A stretch of DNA of 56,060 bases. Origin: Minisyncoccota bacterium (GTDB lineage: Bacteria > Patescibacteriota > Minisyncoccia > Phycocordibacterales > UBA9973). Of the stretch, positions 1-56,060 are shown piece after piece (the first letter of the stretch is position 1; every line of letters begins with the position of its first letter). A model generated the notes under the pieces. It did no database searches. It saw only the letters and a program-made list of their open reading frames with translations, and was not told the origin of the DNA. The position numbers and the translations under genes are program-made. The stretch lies in contig JBAYUN010000005.1 in NCBI GenBank assembly GCA_041675085.1, positions 1-56,060 on the forward strand, given 5' to 3'.

Positions 1-552
<552 letters not shown>

Positions 553-855
553 AAAAGTTAAGAACGAAACAAAATAAAAAACAGCATTTTACAAAATCAT
601 TTTTTATGTGTTCGTTAGAATTTGATCTTTGCTCTAAAAATTATTTAAAAACAAATATCAGAGACTTGCTTCCCGACTGAAAAATCGGGGTTCTCTTTTT
701 TATCAAGCCACAGCGGAACGCTATGACTTGATACACCTATTCACTTGTCAAAGTAAAACGCTCTATCCATAAAGAATAAAGACGTAAAGAGAGTATATAT
801 CATAGATAAATCAAAGTCAACCCCATTTAATATAATCAAAATATATAACTATAAA

Positions 856-9567: not shown

Positions 9568-11526
9568 ATGATAAAGAAAAATAGGGTTCCTTTTAGTACC
9601 TTCAGTATTGAAAAACAAAAAGAAGAAAATAATAAAATGGATAAAAACAACACAAACACAAACACAAACACAAATACAAACACAAGTACAAACAAAACTG
9701 GGGACAAAAAGAAAATGATAAAAAGCTCTACGTACCAATACTCTAAAAAAAGATTTGGACCGCCAAGTAAAGGAGGTAAAAGACCTTTCGCTTCAAAAAA
9801 TGATAACAACAATATCCCCTCACCCGAGGAGGGCGTAGTACGTATTATCCCTCTTGGAGGAGTAGAAGAAATCGGCAAGAACATGACTGCTATCGAAATC
9901 GGCAACGATATCGTAGTGATAGATGCTGGTATGTATTTCTCAAACGAAGATACTCCAGGAGTAGACTATGTTATCCCAAATACTACTTATCTAGAAGAAA
10001 GAAAAGATAAAATACGTGCTCTAATAATAACTCACGGTCACTTAGATCATATCGGAGGTGTGCCGATAGTATTGTCACGTATTGGCAATCCGCCAGTATA
10101 TTCTCGTAACTTGTCTATTCTATTAATGAGAAAGAGGCAAGCTGAATTCCCTCAACTAGCTCCAATGAAAGAAAATATCGTAGAGAGAGACTCTGTGATA
10201 ACTTGTGGAGACATGAAGATTAAATTCTTTGGTGTTACTCACACTATCCCCGACTCTATGGGAATAATTATCGAAACTCCTCATGGAGATATCGTAACTC
10301 CAGGAGACTACAAGCTTGATCATATGGACGGTGTAGTATCGAAAGAAGAAGAACGCGAGTATGCTATTTTTGATAAATCAAAAACTCTTTTATTGATGAC
10401 GGACTCTACAAATATCGAGAACGAAGGTTTCTCTCTGCCTGAAGTAAAAGTGCACCAAGGGTTAGAAAATCTATTGAAAAAAGTAAATGGCAGAATGATT
10501 ATAGCTGCTTTCGCTTCTCACATTACTCGTCTTGCACATATAGTAAAAACTGCAGAAGCTATGGGTAAAAAAGTAGCGCTCGACGGACGTAGTATGAAGA
10601 CCAACATCGAAGTAGCCATAGAAGCTGAATATTTCCAACCTAAAAAAGGAACTATTATCCCAATAGAAGACGCTGATAAATATCCACCAAACAAAGTAGT
10701 TATACTTATGACTGGAGCTCAAGGTGAAGAATTCGCTTCATTAAACCGCGCTGCAAACAAAACTCACACCAAATTTACATTACATAAAGGTGACACTATT
10801 ATCCTATCTGCTTCTGTGGTACCAGGTAATGAACGTGCGGTAGAACGCATGAAAGACGGTATCGCTCGCCAAGGAGTGAAAGTTATCAGTTACCGTACTG
10901 CTGGAGAAGATTTCGTGCACGCTACAGGTCACGGCAACAAAGAAGACGTACGTTGGTTGCACAGAAAAATCAAAGCTAAATTCTTTATTCCAATACACGG
11001 AAATCATTACAGACTACAAGCTCACAAAGATCTTGCTGTCGAATTAGGCATGCCAGAAGAAAACGTTATCGTTCCTGACAACGGATCAATAATAGAAATC
11101 TCTGCTGATGGACAAAAAATCATCAAAAGAAAAGAACGTGCTCCGAGCGGACTTATGCTTGTGGACGGATTAGCTGTATCAGACGTACAAGACGTAGTTA
11201 TTCGTGACCGTCAAATGCTAGCACAAGATGGTATGTTTGTTATTATGGCACTGGTAGATCAAAAGACAGGTAAATTAAAGAAATCTCCAGATCTTATATC
11301 TCGTGGTTTCGTCTATCTAAAAGAAAACCAAGAATTATTGAGACAAGTACGTATCCTAATCAAAAAAGGAGTAGAAGAATCTATCGAACGCATGGTAGCT
11401 ATGGATAATGTAAACGGTGTAGACTTTGATGCTATCAAGGCACATATCGGAGAAAACATTTCTAAATTCTTATTCCAAAAAACAGGTAAACGCCCTCTTG
11501 TTATACCAGTCATCTTGAGCGTATAA
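9568..11526 (+). CDS. rnj: ribonuclease J with an N-terminal low-complexity basic extension
   Basis: RIIPLGGVEEIGKNM and HGHLDHIGG metallo-beta-lactamase motifs, with beta-CASP-like remainder. The true start may be 9637 or 9715. Confidence 0.85.
   Translation: MIKKNRVPFSTFSIEKQKEENNKMDKNNTNTNTNTNTNTSTNKTGDKKKMIKSSTYQYSKKRFGPPSKGGKRPFASKNDNNNIPSPEEGVVRIIPLGGVEEIGKNMTAIEIGNDIVVIDAGMYFSNEDTPGVDYVIPNTTYLEERKDKIRALIITHGHLDHIGGVPIVLSRIGNPPVYSRNLSILLMRKRQAEFPQLAPMKENIVERDSVITCGDMKIKFFGVTHTIPDSMGIIIETPHGDIVTPGDYKLDHMDGVVSKEEEREYAIFDKSKTLLLMTDSTNIENEGFSLPEVKVHQGLENLLKKVNGRMIIAAFASHITRLAHIVKTAEAMGKKVALDGRSMKTNIEVAIEAEYFQPKKGTIIPIEDADKYPPNKVVILMTGAQGEEFASLNRAANKTHTKFTLHKGDTIILSASVVPGNERAVERMKDGIARQGVKVISYRTAGEDFVHATGHGNKEDVRWLHRKIKAKFFIPIHGNHYRLQAHKDLAVELGMPEENVIVPDNGSIIEISADGQKIIKRKERAPSGLMLVDGLAVSDVQDVVIRDRQMLAQDGMFVIMALVDQKTGKLKKSPDLISRGFVYLKENQELLRQVRILIKKGVEESIERMVAMDNVNGVDFDAIKAHIGENISKFLFQKTGKRPLVIPVILSV
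9647..9697 (+). repeat. imperfect hexanucleotide (AACACA)n tract encoding (TN)n
   Basis: acaacacaaacacaaacacaaacacaaatacaaacacaagtacaaac, inside the RNase J N-terminal extension. Confidence 0.8.
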
Positions 11527-14884: not shown

Positions 14885-15271
14885 TTAACTTAATAAAATA
14901 GCGTAAATTTTAGGCAAGAAAATGATAGATCCGACAACTATTGCCAATACAACTGCCAATAATACAGCCCCTGCGGCTATGTCTTTGGTATCTCTTGCAT
15001 AAGGATGATATTCGGGACTTGTTAAGTCTATATCTACTTCTATGGCTGTATTTATAGTTTCTGTTATCAAGACTATAAAAATAGCAAAGACTAAAGCTAT
15101 CCATTCGAAATGAGAAATATTTAAAATACAACCCAAATAAAGAGCTAGGATACCAAAAAATATTTGAAGCCAAGCATTGTGAGTGGTTTTTAAAACAATA
15201 CCCAAACCTCTAAAAGCGTGGGTCGCACTTTTGATTCGAGCAACGATACTAAATCTTTTATTTTCTTTCAT
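14885..15271 (-). CDS. dgkA: diacylglycerol / undecaprenol kinase (DgkA family)
   Basis: Three TM helices over 128 aa; AFRGL, ETINTAIE and DIAAGAVL blocks. Confidence 0.85.
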   Translation of the reverse strand: MKENKRFSIVARIKSATHAFRGLGIVLKTTHNAWLQIFFGILALYLGCILNISHFEWIALVFAIFIVLITETINTAIEVDIDLTSPEYHPYARDTKDIAAGAVLLAVVLAIVVGSIIFLPKIYAILLS

Positions 15272-15392
15272 CCCGTTAAATATTTTTAATTAATTTATAA
15301 TTATATTGCAAATTCTTTTACTCTGATTACGTAAATTTATATATGCCCGCTATTTAAAATATTTAACGGGATTCATAAATAAATTATAACAT
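15272..15392 (-). promoter_or_regulatory. conserved uORF leader module, copy 1 (upstream of dgkA)
   Basis: Extended -10 TGTTATAAT (15391-15383), uORF 15376-15350, a 78-nt spacer, then TTAACGGG abutting the dgkA ATG. Same module as at 27961-28099 and 37245-37365. Confidence 0.55.
15350..15376 (-). CDS. 8-codon upstream ORF MNPVKYFK
   Basis: ATG AAT CCC GTT AAA TAT TTT AAA TAG. The ATG lies 6 nt after TATAAT. An identical copy is at 27997-28023 and a frame-preserving variant at 37261-37287. Confidence 0.4.
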   Translation of the reverse strand: MNPVKYFK

Positions 15393-27790: not shown

Positions 27791-27960
27791 ATTATTTAGC
27801 TTTTACTTTTTTTGGTTTCTTTACTTCTTTTCTTTGACTATTGTTTCCTTTTGCCATAAATTTAAATTAAAATTTTATTTATGATTAATATTCGACTATT
27901 TCTATAAATATATAATATTATATTTAATAAATAATACAAGCTTAGAATATAATAAAAAGG

Positions 27961-28099
27961 TGTATAATAATAGTATTACAAATAAATGAAAATTTTATGA
28001 ATCCCGTTAAATATTTTAAATAGCGTGGTTACATAATATAATGTTATTAGGTCAATAATATTTAATAAAATTAAAAATTAATCAAAAATAATTAACGGG
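27961..28099 (+). promoter_or_regulatory. conserved uORF leader module, copy 2 (upstream of the 2-TM protein and pgl-gnd-zwf)
   Basis: TGTATAAT 27961-27968, uORF 27997-28023, a 76-nt spacer, then TTAACGGG 28092-28099 abutting the ATG at 28100. Confidence 0.55.
27997..28023 (+). CDS. 8-codon upstream ORF MNPVKYFK
   Basis: The 27 nt are identical to the copy at 15376-15350. Confidence 0.4.
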   Translation: MNPVKYFK

Positions 28100-28579
28100 A
28101 TGAAAAATAAATTAAAGATTGTAGGAATGACTAGCGGTATTATAGGATTTGCATTAGTGATAATCGGGATCTGGGCTATGGTTTTTACTTATAGTAACGT
28201 AAGTAGAGAAAATATAATTACTGGAGAGGATGCGTCTATTCCAAACACAAAAGTTGCCGGACCATTAACTCTAAAATCTCAAGCGGACATAATCCGTGAA
28301 CATACACTAAAAATCACACAAGGTAAGACTTATGCAGAAATGCCAAGACAAATACCAAAATTGGATACAGATGGCAAAGAAATTTTAAATGAAAAAGGAG
28401 AAGTAGTATTAGTCGATAACGTGGCTCGTAATACTTGGATAACTGCTACTACGCTCACCACATCTATAAATCTCGCTTTACTGGCATATGGATTATCTCT
28501 ACTAACTATTCTTTTTGGCATATTGTCTATTTCAAACGGCTATATTTTCTGTGAGTTATCTAAGAAAGAAAATAATTAA
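28100..28579 (+). CDS. two-TM membrane protein, function unknown
   Basis: TM helices at both ends with an extracytoplasmic middle (GPLTLKSQADIIREHTL). Confidence 0.55.
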   Translation: MKNKLKIVGMTSGIIGFALVIIGIWAMVFTYSNVSRENIITGEDASIPNTKVAGPLTLKSQADIIREHTLKITQGKTYAEMPRQIPKLDTDGKEILNEKGEVVLVDNVARNTWITATTLTTSINLALLAYGLSLLTILFGILSISNGYIFCELSKKENN

Positions 28580-36334: not shown

Positions 36335-37210
36335 TTAATCTTTTTTCATGAAAATATCCAATTCCCCTTCTAACACATCTTCTATCTGTGAAGTCTCGAC
36401 GTCAGTCCTATGATCTTTGACCATCTTGTACGGATGCATTACATACGAGCGGATTTGATTCCCCCATTCTATACTAGTACCTTTACTTATTTTCATACTT
36501 TCCTCAAAAGTCTTTTTCTCATTTTGAGCTTTTTGGAAAATCTTGGCTCTCAAGATATTCATAGCTCTTTCTCTGTTTGCTTCTTGAGAACGCTCGCCGG
36601 TCGCATGGACCGAGATATTCGTCGGGATATGTATTATCCGCACAGCTGTCTCTCTCTTGTTCACGTTCTGACCACCAGGACCACCAGACTTTGCGAATTC
36701 TACTTTAAGATCAGCAAGAGGTATCTCAAAATCACGCTCATCAAGTTTTGAAAATTTAGGAAGTACTTCGACTAGAGAGAAAGAGGTGTGGCGTAATTTC
36801 TTGGCATTAAATGGAGAGATGCGTACTAATCTATGCACGCCACCTTCATTTTTTAAAAGTCCGTACGCTCGCGGACCTTCAACTTCAAAAGAAATATTAC
36901 GATAGCCGCCGTGCTCATTTTTATTCTCATGAATTAGAAAAATATTCCAACCTTTTTTATTAGCGTATTTCAAGTACATAGAAAATAAAATACTAGAGAA
37001 ATCCTCGGCGTCGTCGCCTCCCGCTCCAGATATGATAGATACTATAGCCGAACCTTTATCCCATTTATTAGACCCTTCGCGTTTGTCTTTCAAGTCTTGT
37101 ATTTCTTTTATGACGCGTTGAGCTTCATTTTTATCAAGCCAAAAGTCAGGCAATAGTATTAAAGCTTCAAGCCTTTCTATTTCTTGGTTTATATTTTCAT
37201 TATCTTCCAT
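36335..37210 (-). CDS. prfB: peptide chain release factor 2 (short form, no frameshift site)
   Basis: SPF motif (RISPFNAKK) and GGQ motif (SGGPGGQNVNK); PDFW near the N-terminus. Only 291 aa. Confidence 0.85.
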   Translation of the reverse strand: MEDNENINQEIERLEALILLPDFWLDKNEAQRVIKEIQDLKDKREGSNKWDKGSAIVSIISGAGGDDAEDFSSILFSMYLKYANKKGWNIFLIHENKNEHGGYRNISFEVEGPRAYGLLKNEGGVHRLVRISPFNAKKLRHTSFSLVEVLPKFSKLDERDFEIPLADLKVEFAKSGGPGGQNVNKRETAVRIIHIPTNISVHATGERSQEANRERAMNILRAKIFQKAQNEKKTFEESMKISKGTSIEWGNQIRSYVMHPYKMVKDHRTDVETSQIEDVLEGELDIFMKKD

Positions 37211-37244
37211 AACTATAATTACTGTAACAAAAAAATACTTAATT

Positions 37245-37365
37245 TGCTATAATATATATTATGAATCCCGTTAAGTCTTTTAAATAACGGGAATGAGTAA
37301 ATACAAGTAATTAGCAAATAATAACATGTAGTATAATTATCAATTAATCAAAAATATTTAACGGG
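37245..37365 (+). promoter_or_regulatory. conserved uORF leader module, copy 3 (upstream of the VIT1-family gene)
   Basis: TGCTATAAT 37245-37253, uORF 37261-37287, a 78-nt spacer, then TTAACGGG 37358-37365 abutting the ATG at 37366. Confidence 0.55.
37261..37287 (+). CDS. 8-codon upstream ORF MNPVKSFK
   Basis: ATG AAT CCC GTT AAG TCT TTT AAA TAA. The ATG lies 7 nt after TATAAT. Confidence 0.4.
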   Translation: MNPVKSFK

Positions 37366-37875
37366 ATGAAAAAAAGAGTAGCAAAATATATTGGGGATTT
37401 AGTTTATGGAGCAAATGACGGCATTATAACGACTTTCGCTATCGTAGCTGGAGTCGCGGGAGCGAATTTGTCTCCTGCGGTGGTTATCATTTTAGGTATT
37501 TCAAACGTACTCGCTGACGGTTTCTCTATGGCCTCGTCAAACTACCTCGCTCGTAAATCTGAAAAAGATTATCTAGATAATATCGGCAAAGAAGGCGGAG
37601 AAATAAACAATCCACTTAAAAATGCAGTAGTCACCTTTGTCGCGTTTATTCTCGCTGGATCTATCCCCCTCGTACCATACGTATTTGGAGTTAAAGAAAA
37701 TGTATTTAATTATGCTATCTTAGCAACCACAGTAGCATTATTTACCGTCGGGAGTTTAAGAGCGAGAGTCACAGGAATGAATTGGATCAAAGCTGGACTG
37801 GAAATGCTTTTCGTTGGAGCCTTAGCTGCAGGAGTCGCCTACTTTATCGGCCGCGCATTGAGTTATTTAATTTAA
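37366..37875 (+). CDS. VIT1/CCC1-family iron/manganese transporter
   Basis: YGANDGIITTFAIVAGVAGA and LADGFSMA blocks over five TM helices. Confidence 0.8.
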   Translation: MKKRVAKYIGDLVYGANDGIITTFAIVAGVAGANLSPAVVIILGISNVLADGFSMASSNYLARKSEKDYLDNIGKEGGEINNPLKNAVVTFVAFILAGSIPLVPYVFGVKENVFNYAILATTVALFTVGSLRARVTGMNWIKAGLEMLFVGALAAGVAYFIGRALSYLI

Positions 37876-37883
37876 ATTCTTTG

Positions 37884-37955
37884 AGCCGTTGGTGAGGATT
37901 GAACTCACGCTCTCCATATTACCAATATGGTGCTTTACCACTAAGCTACAACGGC
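37884..37955 (-). tRNA. tRNA-Thr (anticodon GGU)
   Basis: GCCGTTG TA GCTT AGTGGTA AAGC A CCATA TTGGTAA TATGG AGAGC GTGAG TTCAATC CTCAC CAACGGC T. Confidence 0.9.
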
Positions 37956-38021
37956 ATACGTACTTGCAGACTAACTATTCAAGATTACTACAAATCAGAC
38001 TTTATTTCAATTATTACAATT

Positions 38022-38056
38022 AAAAAACTCTCCGCCTAAGGCGGAGAGTTTTTTAA
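38022..38056 (-). terminator. intrinsic terminator after the SPFH gene
   Basis: CTCTCCGCC-TAA-GGCGGAGAG stem with flanking A/T runs. Confidence 0.8.
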
Positions 38057-38062
38057 TTTATT

Positions 38063-54909: not shown

Positions 54910-55021
<112 letters not shown>

Positions 55022-55171
55022 TGAAAACTCGATTAGAAGAATTTTTACAAAATTTTTTAAAACTTCGCCCTCGGAGTCATAAAGACAGGGGACCCACGTT
55101 TTTTAAAATTTTATAAAAATTCTTTTTAATTTAAAGTCTTGCGACTAATATATAACAAATATATTTTGTGG

Positions 55172-56060
55172 TTTACAAATTTCTTAACAGGAATCGAAAC
55201 ATTAGTACTTCTCAGCTAATACATTACTGTATTTACACTTAAAGCCTATCAACCTGATCATCTCTCAGGGTTCTAATAACGATTCCTAATCTTGAAGCTG
55301 GCTTCCCTCTTAGATGCTTTCAGAGGTTATCCATTCCCGACATAGCTACCGAGCAGTCCAGTTGGCACTAGAGCTCGTACACCAGAGGTCAGTTCACCCC
55401 GGTCCTCTCGTACTAGGGGCAAATCTTCTCAAGAATCAACGAGTGCAGTAGATAGGAGACCAACCTGTCTCACGCAAAATGTTTTATATCAAACTCTCAT
55501 CTACAAGAGCAGAACCTTTATTACTAAAGGGATCGGACTGTGACTTTAACTTACAAAATAAGTTATCTAACATTCAGTCTCTACGGGCATCTCTTAAAGA
55601 GAATTCCCTCGGCGTTATCCTTTGTTTTCACAAATAGGATTTCTCCGATATAAGTTAGCTTCTCGTATTGTATTACTACAATACGCCGCCGTGATGTGTA
55701 TTTTTCAACACATGGTTGTTTTCAGTTTTATATGAGCACTTACGTCTCATATATTTTCTTCGCTCGGACATTATAAAAATAAATTTTTATATGCTCCTCG
55801 CTTGAAAATATAACAGTTCTAATTCATATTCGAATTTGTCTTCCTCGCGGGATTCAGACTGTGAAAAACGCAAAACGCATATCATGCAACTTGTAACAAA
55901 AAGTTATAAGTTTTGATTTATACGCTATACGACCTTCACGGTCTGAACCCAGCTCGCGTACCTTTTTAATTGGCGAACAGCCAAACGCTTGGCAGCTTCT
56001 CCACCGCCGCGCTAAGGTGAGCCGACATCGAGGTGCCGAACTCCGCCGTCGATATGAACT
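55172..56060 (-). rRNA. rrl: 23S rRNA, 3' portion (partial, continues past the right edge), interrupted by an intron
   Basis: The reverse complement contains GGTTCAGACCGT...CGTGAGACAGGTTGGTCTCCTATC, the sarcin-ricin region CTAGTACGAGAGGACCGG and the 3' end AGTACTAATG. Confidence 0.9.
55475..55937 (-). ncRNA. group-I-like intron in 23S rRNA domain V (no ORF)
   Basis: 463 nt split the conserved ...GACCGU | CGUGAGACAG... The 5' exon ends in U and the insert ends in G. R/S-like core GUAGAGACUGAA ... CACAGUCCG gives P7 GACUG/CAGUC. Several GUAA-capped hairpins. Confidence 0.6.

Follow-up and report, generated by a model that had tools for sequence, protein, structure and literature searches.

Introduction

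Mycobacterial interspersed repetitive units (MIRUs), reportedly described by Supply et al. in 1997 as summarised in reviews, are the repeats with which a ~100-nt element upstream of a VIT1/CCC1-family gene is compared here. The element lies in a stretch of 56,060 nucleotides from a Minisyncoccota bacterium (GenBank assembly GCA_041675085.1, contig JBAYUN010000005.1, positions 1 to 56,060, forward strand). This whole stretch is called the window, and the element before VIT1 is copy 3 of the three that it contains. MIRUs are 40-100 bp long, occur in 40-50 copies per genome, have imperfect inverted repeats, and are known from empty and filled sites with tetranucleotide direct repeats (PMC3184786). 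They are mobile and insert at start codons, where an internal open reading frame (ORF) is coupled to the gene (PMC12548453), and their ORFs overlap flanking genes (PMC3184786). MIRUs occupy start codons and operon junctions in one orientation and are seen as minimal-effect insertions (PMC12548453, PMC3184786).

A second known system of relevance is translational coupling by RNA unfolding, which is described for rpmI-rplT of E. coli and for MS2 coat-lysis/replicase (PMC12548453). A preliminary description of the window presented the sequence before VIT1 as a dedicated leader module with an upstream ORF and two mutually exclusive pairings. Comparison with related genomes points instead to a mobile repeat: copy 3 is very probably a non-autonomous palindromic element of ~100 nt, resembling MITEs (miniature inverted-repeat transposable elements) and MIRUs, that inserted at the VIT1 start codon. 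If so, the three "leaders" of the window and dozens more in related genomes are one mobile repeat, and neither a regulon for metal or envelope stress nor a new riboswitch.

Filled and empty sites at VIT1

Two independent assemblies (L058/L059) carry a VIT1 gene that is 96% identical to that of the window, with 47 identical upstream nt and without the element. Their empty site reads ...tttgctataatgtatcttATGAAAAAAAGAGTAGCA, that is, TGCTATAAT followed by 7 nt and ATGAAAAAAAGAG, which is a leaderless layout, while the filled site of the window reads ...tttgctataatatatattATGAA, then 100 nt, then ATGAAAAAAAGAGTAGCA. Relatives whose VIT1 is 84%, 76%, and 70% identical (L060-L065) keep the prfB-VIT1 synteny and are empty too. 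Altogether, five related lineages on 8 contigs retain this synteny and lack the whole module, and the box motif does not occur in ~120 kb of the empty-site relatives' sequence. Judged from these sequences, VIT1 appears to have been leaderless before an insertion that duplicated the gene's first 4-5 bases. The spacer at 37254-37260 differs at two positions between the window (atatatt) and L058 (gtatctt); these differences may be due to chance or to a change tied to insertion or excision.

The repeat body of copy 3 is 100 nt long (TCCCGTTAA...TTAACGGG; 37266..37365, plus strand) and is absent at the L058-L065 site. It is recovered by nhmmer with E=3.8e-22, a value that is partly a matter of construction, since the profile of 30 copies included all three window copies. 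On its left stands the upstream copy of the duplicated target, ATGAA (37261..37265, plus strand), which is recognized by comparing the empty and filled sites and now opens a mini-ORF. On its right stands VIT1 itself (37366..37875, plus strand), an ORF of 169 aa for which PF01988 is recorded on all homologues and whose opening ATGAA is the downstream duplicate.

Four further genes, namely pyrG, mltG, and two that encode 240 aa and 327 aa, are filled in a Saccharibacteria metagenome-assembled genome (MAG), CAYNAO01, but have clean empty sites in the window, where pyrG comes right behind the ftsX stop. With VIT1, this makes five empty/filled pairs. The ortholog of the copy-2 gene in L060/L061 likewise has no element. 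VIT1 and dgkA are filled in both the window and CAYNAO01. Of these, the VIT1 copies are mutual nearest neighbours, though only weakly (68%), which the dgkA copies are not. Shared ancestry of these copies is rejected on account of these weak or missing relations and of the empty relatives in between; parallel insertion and repeated precise loss are indistinguishable here.

Downstream of the 169-aa VIT1, L058/L059 and L062/L063 have an adjoining 237-aa ORF for a VIT1 paralog (L058 10540-11253, L062 9819-10532). L065 has a 248-aa ORF directly after VIT1, with no Pfam hit on record. No second ORF follows VIT1 in the window (37876-38062, where only tRNA-Thr lies) or in L060/L061.

Target duplication

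The base after the upstream ATG tracks the gene (ATGA/ATGA or ATGG/ATGG) in 43 of 44 distinct copies. The upstream ATG itself is retained in 43 of the 44 copies found by pattern and lost in one further diverged copy. The fifth duplicated base is A throughout the main family, and ATGAG/ATGAG occurs at gltX in an Omnitrophica contig (L024). In the main family, every target has R at +4 and A at +5, compared with ~57% of genes.

The variable base is independent of element subfamily, as copies with close interiors may carry ATGA or ATGG (L014/L015, L013/L016, L022/L023). It is therefore not inherited with the subfamilies, which argues that the duplication is taken from the target. Site-specific recombination with an inherited core is ruled against on the same ground. 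The duplication can be read either as 5 bp (ATGRA) or as 4 bp (TGRA) with the perfect ends T-CCCG...CGGG-A.

In the same Omnitrophica contig (L024, MHFM01000042.1), a second copy at 1765-1880 lies 12 nt inside ispD and has GTTAG on both borders, which indicates that the duplication does not depend on an ATG in itself. The N-terminus of this ispD, MNPTVSVIIPAAG, is cut off, and the gene apparently starts from an ATG supplied by the element (MKERSNGVSVIIPAAG). Taken by its features, the repeat is a short non-coding element with terminal inverted repeats, a target duplication, and dispersed copies with filled and empty sites, as is characteristic of MITEs.

Anatomy of copy 3 and of the other window copies

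A host promoter precedes copy 3 and lies outside the repeat. Its extended -10 box, TGCTATAAT, can be read at 37245..37253 (plus strand) and belongs to GTAACA-18-TATAAT with TG, the sole sigma-70-like plus-strand site found in a promoter scan. After 7 nt, the original ATG reads into the left arm as the mini-ORF MNPVKSFK* (ATG AAT CCC GTT AAG TCT TTT AAA TAA; 37261..37287, plus strand), whose stop lies 78 nt before the VIT1 ATG. The left arm of the terminal inverted repeat, AUCCCGUUAAGUCUUUU (37265..37281, plus strand), is the 5' strand of a helix with the right arm, AAAAUAUUUAACGGGAU (37351..37367, plus strand), which covers the A and U of the VIT1 start codon. This assignment comes from the MFE (minimum free energy) and centroid folds and from covariation. 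The right-end box and the VIT1 start together form TTAACGGG-ATG (37358..37368, plus strand). Within the left arm, CCCGTTA (37267..37273, plus strand) is the 5' half of a local hairpin, whose proximal partner TAACGGG (37285..37291, plus strand) overlaps the mini-ORF stop.

The preliminary description had outlined this anatomy, with a promoter, a short ORF, and a segment that can pair in two ways, in one of them with a stretch overlapping the start codon, and the sequence bears it out. The local CCCGUUA/UAACGGG hairpin is indeed perfect over 7 bp, with a loop of 11 nt. Two details change: TAACGGG, which had been placed at 37286-37292, begins one base earlier, and the long-range pairing with the start-codon box exists but extends over 17 bp rather than 8 bp.

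The two other copies that had been reported are present as well. Copy 1 (15376..15267, minus strand) precedes a diacylglycerol-kinase-like gene (Pfam DAGK_prokar), has a TATAAT box 6 nt ahead of its upstream ATG, and matches the profile with E=3.2e-20. Copy 2 (27997..28104, plus strand) precedes a gene for a 159-aa membrane protein and matches with E=6e-19; both E-values come from a profile that includes these copies. Copy 3 shows 77% column identity with copies 1 and 2 in the alignment. TAACGGG occurs 7 times in the window against 2.5 expected, and all 7 lie inside the three copies. The 5' 31-mer occurs twice with up to 3 mismatches, compared with 0 in 100 shuffles, and the fold z-scores of the three copies range from -3.5 to -3.9.

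Between the copy-2 gene and mltG, a 21-codon ORF (27792-27857, minus strand) for a very basic peptide, MAKGNNSQRKEVKKPKKVKAK, has a hairpin terminator behind it. The region is apparently conserved in L060 in an unaligned, by-eye comparison, and the ORF may be an unannotated small protein.

Distribution and gene context

A pattern scan of one genome per species for ATCCCGTTAA-N68-95-TTAACGGGATG yields 30 loci. About 25 exact copies lie in the single MAG CAYNAO01, whose loci hold ~28 copies when profile and box finds are counted. Several other Saccharibacteria MAGs have 1-2 copies each, and single matches occur in Omnitrophica and Planctomycetaceae MAGs. Related copies are also found on other contigs of candidate phyla radiation (CPR) type. 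A metagenome scan without the final G adds 12 copies of the same type, before genes read as L3, endonuclease IV, and others, and it also returns unrelated palindromes and chance matches. No match is found in viral contigs by the pattern scan or in plasmids and phages by blastn of the element. Searches with the profile (30 copies) and with single boxes recover a handful of additional copies, diverged or shortened, in the fetched loci, each abutting a start codon. These precede a HIT-family gene (Pfam run on the CAYNAO counterpart) and, by eye, genes for a kinase, glycyl-tRNA synthetase, and L36.

The terminal ATG opens a long ORF in all pattern loci but two. One of these, L020, is likely a chance match; in the other, an Omnitrophica copy, the terminal ATG is the original start of the ispD gene that a second insertion has split. 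Genes downstream of the element encode an M16 peptidase, MazF, a P-type ATPase, Hsp70, PfkB, CTP synthase, YceG/MltG, L15, and HIT, as well as exonuclease III, a histidine kinase, TatD, deoxyhypusine synthase, RNase H, DprA, RpiB, class II aldolase, and DgkA. Outside the window, the module precedes at least 30 unrelated genes, cytoplasmic housekeeping genes included. The earlier suggestion that the regulated genes share only a membrane location does not survive this comparison; the impression arose because only three copies were seen.

Of the ~47 copies, nearly all sit exactly on a start codon, and one is found 12 nt inside coding sequence. All are co-oriented with the gene, none having a reversed core. 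Some fill operon junctions, namely ftsX-pyrG, ispDF-gltX, rpsE-rplO, and the position upstream of an L36-like gene (MKVRASVKK, named by eye). The bodies of the window copies measure 98-100 nt and those of other copies 45-150 nt, with arms of 12-18 nt. The inverted repeats are spaced 81-83 nt apart around an A/T-rich core of ~70 nt. Tandem or adjacent copies are confined to non-Saccharibacteria contigs (L024, L052, L055).

In most bacteria, rpmD (L30) sits between rpsE and rplO. In two GC-richer Saccharimonadales MAGs, the rpsE-rplO junction is filled by a copy (L012 1444-1555, L025 591-702) with an open 34-codon frame whose TAA lies 4 nt before rplO. A further copy before the L36-like gene (L025 3320-3410) is stop-free over 81 nt, and its upstream ATG is in frame with the gene. 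L036 carries a different small element (9942-10063) with the same ATCCCGTTAA 10-mer in a subterminal place, 8 extra inverted-repeat bases outside the 10-mer (TCACTGCT...), and the 7-bp border repeat CAATTTA. This element suggests that the 10-mer is a motif common to several MITE families.

Relatives with the same gene order as the window are labelled Candidatus Saccharibacteria. A Shine-Dalgarno (SD)-like 4-mer stands upstream of 4 of the 41 window genes that start with ATG, and 19 have a TAnnnT -10-type box ending 5-8 nt before the ATG. Initiation in this host, as far as its sequence tells, seems largely SD-independent and often leaderless. Of 30 Saccharibacteria insertions, 23 are on leaderless-type starts, and the rest are inside operons or behind a short leader. 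The window also holds part of a 16S rRNA gene, its 5' 555 nt (1-553, minus strand), and the 23S 3' end with 5S (54912-56060, minus strand). These lie ~54 kb apart on the same strand, so 16S is unlinked from 23S-5S here.

RNA structure and selection

The 17-bp helix between the arms is the MFE fold of all three window copies, at -21 to -24 kcal/mol (copy 3: -21.1), whereas the local hairpin alone reaches -4.3 to -9.8 kcal/mol (copy 3: -9.8). In the free RNA of copy 3, the pairing probability at -15..+3 of the AUG is 0.85, and it falls to 0.27 when the first 30 nt are held single-stranded. Across the window copies, occupying the mini-ORF in silico lowers start-codon pairing from 0.85-0.93 to 0.14-0.27.

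Among 37 distinct copies, 93% of the cells of the long helix are paired, and 32 cells are compensatory compared with 7.1 +/- 2.2 after shuffling, a value that none of 500 shuffles reaches. Arm positions 12-17 covary, as in ATGTTTT/AAAACAT, ACTCCA/TGGAGT, and AGATAT/ATATCT. The outer 10 nt of the arms are fixed by the search pattern; in copies found without the pattern, these boxes are intact in all but ~3. Where lineages use SD sequences, the part of the right arm that covaries is SD-like (GGAG, GAGG, AAGGA) and pairs with the left arm.

The local hairpin has 91% of its cells paired in 27 TM7-type copies. All 12 of its one-sided changes are sense-strand G.U/U.G wobbles, and no G that faces a C is altered. 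The pattern modestly indicates constraint on the sense RNA, in copies that are not independent of one another. No conserved interior fold is found, as RNAalifold gives the terminal helix alone.

The mini-ORF ranges from 8 to >30 codons across copies, and only MNPVK, which the inverted repeat itself encodes, is constant. In one diverged copy, ACG replaces the upstream ATG. The sole testable orthologous pair (L012/L025) gives a dN/dS of 0.6-0.75, which is the same in other frames, and the mini-ORF peptide is by this pair under no selection. Given the insertion and its target duplication, the "upstream ORF" of the preliminary description is an outcome of insertion and not an evolved leader peptide: an insertion onto the start codon leaves VIT1's original start codon reading into the left arm.

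A possible relay from the old to the new start codon

The native promoter would still start the transcript at the old ATG. This 5'-terminal ATG would read into the left arm as an 8-codon mini-ORF, while the intact gene would restart at the ATG of the right end. The 17-nt arms are predicted to pair in the RNA and to bury the VIT1 start codon, with the proximal TAACGGG as a weaker local alternative partner for the left arm. Ribosomes initiating at the old ATG would translate the left arm; the stop codon lies just past it. A ribosome on the left arm would open the helix and leave the right arm and the new AUG accessible, where re-initiation could take place. The native initiation signal would in this way be relayed to the gene, and the insertion would be low-cost and nearly silent.

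Translational coupling of this kind, modelled on the predicted folds, is a tentative proposal for how the gene stays expressed, and it may well prove wrong. It would explain the persistence of the element on start codons and its single orientation, and both the single orientation and the persistence on essential genes are consistent with it. Part of the start-codon bias would also be explained by a deletion-bias trap, in which only exact excision is viable at a start codon and old copies accumulate.

A bolder version of the mobile-repeat reading, which must be considered doubtful, holds that the element actively homes to translation starts and is a self-neutralising insertion for non-SD bacteria. 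The insertion would duplicate the start codon and turn the old 5'-terminal AUG into the start of a leaderless mini-ORF. The terminal helix would set the new AUG beside the old one, and unfolding, re-initiation, or even shunt-like transfer would relay the ribosome over ~100 nt. At the right end, a ribosome arriving from upstream would, depending on its frame, stop at a TAA 4 nt before the ATG, stop at the TGA of ATGA, or read on into the gene. If true, this would be widespread start-codon-specific mobile DNA (CPR, Omnitrophica, and others) with an undescribed mechanism of movement.

Several observations weigh against the mobile-repeat reading or its relay. A helix only 5 nt from the 5' end should hinder leaderless initiation, which is the weak point of the relay. 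Mismatches in the long helix comprise 7 G.U and 11 A.C with no G.U excess, so that the complementarity could serve DNA ends as well as RNA. The wobble pattern is found only in the local hairpin, and selection at the RNA level is accordingly indicated for that hairpin alone. Interiors differ by 10-40% among copies of one genome and the 10-nt boxes are nearly always perfect, which suggests selection in place or a sequence-specific partner, unlike a decaying selfish repeat. No copy lies in neutral intergenic DNA, though ATGRA is about as frequent there as at gene starts, and survivorship alone may be insufficient to explain the start-codon location. Finally, no cognate insertion sequence (IS) is found: in 434 kb of fetched loci, no transposase-like ORF lies between two boxes spaced 0.8-2.5 kb, and no transposase or full-length parent occurs in a further ~120 kb or in plasmids, phages, and viral contigs.

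Inspection of L046 shows nested small palindromes and a two-gene insert between 65-nt direct repeats, and no box-bounded transposase. The insert (10170-11520) consists of two small ORFs between direct repeats that end in TTATTAACGGGATTCCTTCCAA. It adjoins nested CCCGTTA palindromes, which lie where a long GTPase-like ORF (possibly der) has its 3' end. The ORFs look like a nucleotidyltransferase/HEPN-like pair when their sequence is read by itself.

Alternative explanations

A gene-specific leader for metal or envelope stress, either a riboswitch or a leader-peptide attenuator that switches between the local hairpin and the start-codon pairing, is hardly tenable. It draws on two mutually exclusive pairings that are kept in family members, one of them masking the gene start as in leader attenuators, and on a local hairpin that varies by sense-strand wobble only. 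No known RNA family accounts for the module either: Rfam at gathering scores finds no family at any of the three copies, nothing even at E<=10 in 37150-37450, and at copy 1 only chance-level opposite-strand matches with E 0.5-4, far under gathering scores. The module is accordingly distinct from the yybP-ykoY Mn riboswitch, as had been expected. However, a dedicated cis-regulatory leader of VIT1, DgkA, and a 2-TM protein, as first proposed, does not agree with a module that is carried by at least 30 unrelated genes, Hsp70, L15, CTP synthase, and aldolase among them, and that is bordered by a duplicate of each gene's own first bases. The expected conservation in relatives holds for both pairings across family members but fails at the locus, where the VIT1 orthologs of five lineages, the closest 96% identical, lack the module. 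There is also no conserved interior structure able to form a ligand pocket, and the peptide, which is free of selection, shows none of the gene-class-specific conservation of an attenuator, with its varied lengths and unrelated downstream genes. An invertible promoter, whose 70-nt core an invertase flips, or a REPIN doublet moved by RAYT, a single-copy HUH enzyme, is very improbable. Two inverted 17-nt repeats at a constant spacing of 81-83 nt around a ~70-nt A/T-rich core would suit either, and the many copies with conserved repeats and diverged cores resemble REPIN populations. But a flipped core occurs in 0 of ~47 copies from many independent assemblies, and a 70-bp core is very short for inversion. 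Neither system makes target duplications, and REPINs lie off start codons, whereas a target-tracking duplication of 4-5 bp is the rule here.

Two other explanations accept the insertion and differ over what it does. In a domesticated regulon, which is distinctly unlikely, the element spread as mobile DNA and its boxes ATCCCGTTAA / TTAACGGGAT, three per copy, now bind one trans-acting protein. The binder could be a DNA-binding repressor, a transposase-derived regulator, an RNA-binding translational regulator, or a nuclease, and ~25-30 genes would be co-regulated, like those of Neisseria REP2, which sets a precedent (PMC3184786). The outer boxes are invariant while the inner helix drifts by compensation and the interiors diverge, and the boxes are imperfect in only ~3 of the 28 copies that the CAYNAO loci hold. 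The recurrence of the 10-mer in the L036 MITE family with its 7-bp duplication would fit a protein recognition motif, and the left box stands at transcript +5..+21, right behind the -10 box, a place in which protein binding would block transcription. Box invariance is nevertheless partly made by the search, as the scans demanded exact 10-mers; the carrier genes have no common function; presence varies even among close relatives, which is unexpected for an established regulon; and no candidate binding protein is identified. It is also conceivable, but on balance unlikely, that the gene stays expressed through an outward promoter of the element or through hairpin cleavage (e.g., by RNase III), being translated either way from a 5' end that is short or leaderless, with the mini-ORF and the helix translationally idle. 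The candidate promoters are A/T-rich -10-like hexamers within or beside the right arm, such as an AATATT ending 7 nt before the ATG and a TATAAT at 37332-37337, and copies 1 and 3 both have TATAAT ~28 nt before the ATG. A block by the right arm, AATTATAAATTAATCAAAAATATTT, is conserved with no complement in the left half, and the single orientation shows the interior's asymmetry to be important. An RNase specific for double strands could plausibly act on a 17-bp A/U-rich helix, rRNA intervening sequences are cut by RNase III in a parallel manner, and a restored leaderless 5' end would work in a host that is mostly non-SD and often leaderless. Against this, the promoter scan shows no -35 partner for any internal site, TATAAT is not conserved among copies (only AATTAT is), and the operon copies and SD-run right arms look made for translation from a longer transcript.

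Two further candidates were set aside. The boxes contain GTTAAAT and ATTTAAC as in integron attC sites, but on inspection their order is opposite to attC R''/R', and GTTAGAA variants break the consensus. An informal comparison of the boxes with the initiator tRNA anticodon arm and with 16S rRNA, whose 3' end is outside the window, gave no convincing complementarity.

Significance

To our knowledge, start-codon-precise repeats are hardly documented outside mycobacterial MIRUs, and the literature found on Saccharibacteria with leaderless genes or repeats holds nothing that describes this element. A mobile repeat at VIT1 and its kin would widen the phenomenon to ultra-small bacteria of the CPR and to a few further phyla, and would add clear inverted repeats and a target-tracking duplication. 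Each insertion on a leaderless gene would give it a 105-nt structured leader. The filled and empty alleles of close relatives offer naturally matched pairs with which to study how internal start codons are found in such organisms. Perfect boxes in diverged copies, the lack of neutral intergenic copies, and the lack of a transposase in the sequence searched may point to an undescribed mechanism of targeting or maintenance.

Comparison with known systems

The element shares with coupled genes a downstream start locked in a helix whose other strand lies in an upstream ORF, such that ribosomes open the helix, and stop-to-start gaps of tens of nt are compatible with coupling (PMC12548453). The likeness is one of mechanism only, and the mechanism is predicted here; the upstream ORF is an 8-codon by-product of insertion, on a transcript that is probably leaderless, and not a real gene.

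The hairpin-forming MITEs Correia/NEMIS, ERIC, and Nezha resemble the element in their length of ~100-150 bp, lack of transposase coding, terminal inverted repeats, target duplication, multiple copies, and polymorphism, and in a stable predicted transcript hairpin able to alter the expression of a neighbour (PMC3184786). However, Correia, ERIC, and Nezha use short palindromic or TA targets in any intergenic DNA and in either orientation, whereas the element is found at start codons in one orientation with a non-palindromic ATGRA duplication, and no parent IS is found for it. Neisseria REP2 and Borrelia IR-A/IR-B are likewise 120-150 bp repeats upstream of some 14-26 unrelated genes, to which they supply the 5' untranslated region and the ATG, with internal stem-loops near the 5' end (PMC3184786). 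They have no terminal inverted repeats, none of the described features of REP2 is a target duplication, and REP2, which has a ribosome-binding site, is associated with co-regulation on contact with host cells (PMC3184786). Inverted repeats and a duplication are, in contrast, the defining features of the element.

MIRUs share the most with it: short repeats in tens of copies, empty and filled sites, short border repeats, start-codon and operon sites, one orientation, and a small ORF. Like a MIRU, the element inserts at starts and junctions, is co-oriented with the gene, and has a short bridging ORF. The two are compared by description only, and they have no evident common ancestry. Their hosts also differ, the present one being an A/T-rich CPR bacterium without SD use here, while mycobacteria are G+C-rich. 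Unlike MIRUs, the element has long, near-perfect terminal inverted repeats and a 17-bp helix that buries the start codon. Its mini-ORF in A/T-rich copies stops after 8 codons, 78 nt short of the gene, whereas the MIRU ORF overlaps the gene by 4 nt. It also targets mostly leaderless starts and forms no tandem arrays in Saccharibacteria copies. The element is thus a MITE/MIRU-like start-codon repeat of CPR bacteria, and its closest described kind is the mycobacterial MIRU.

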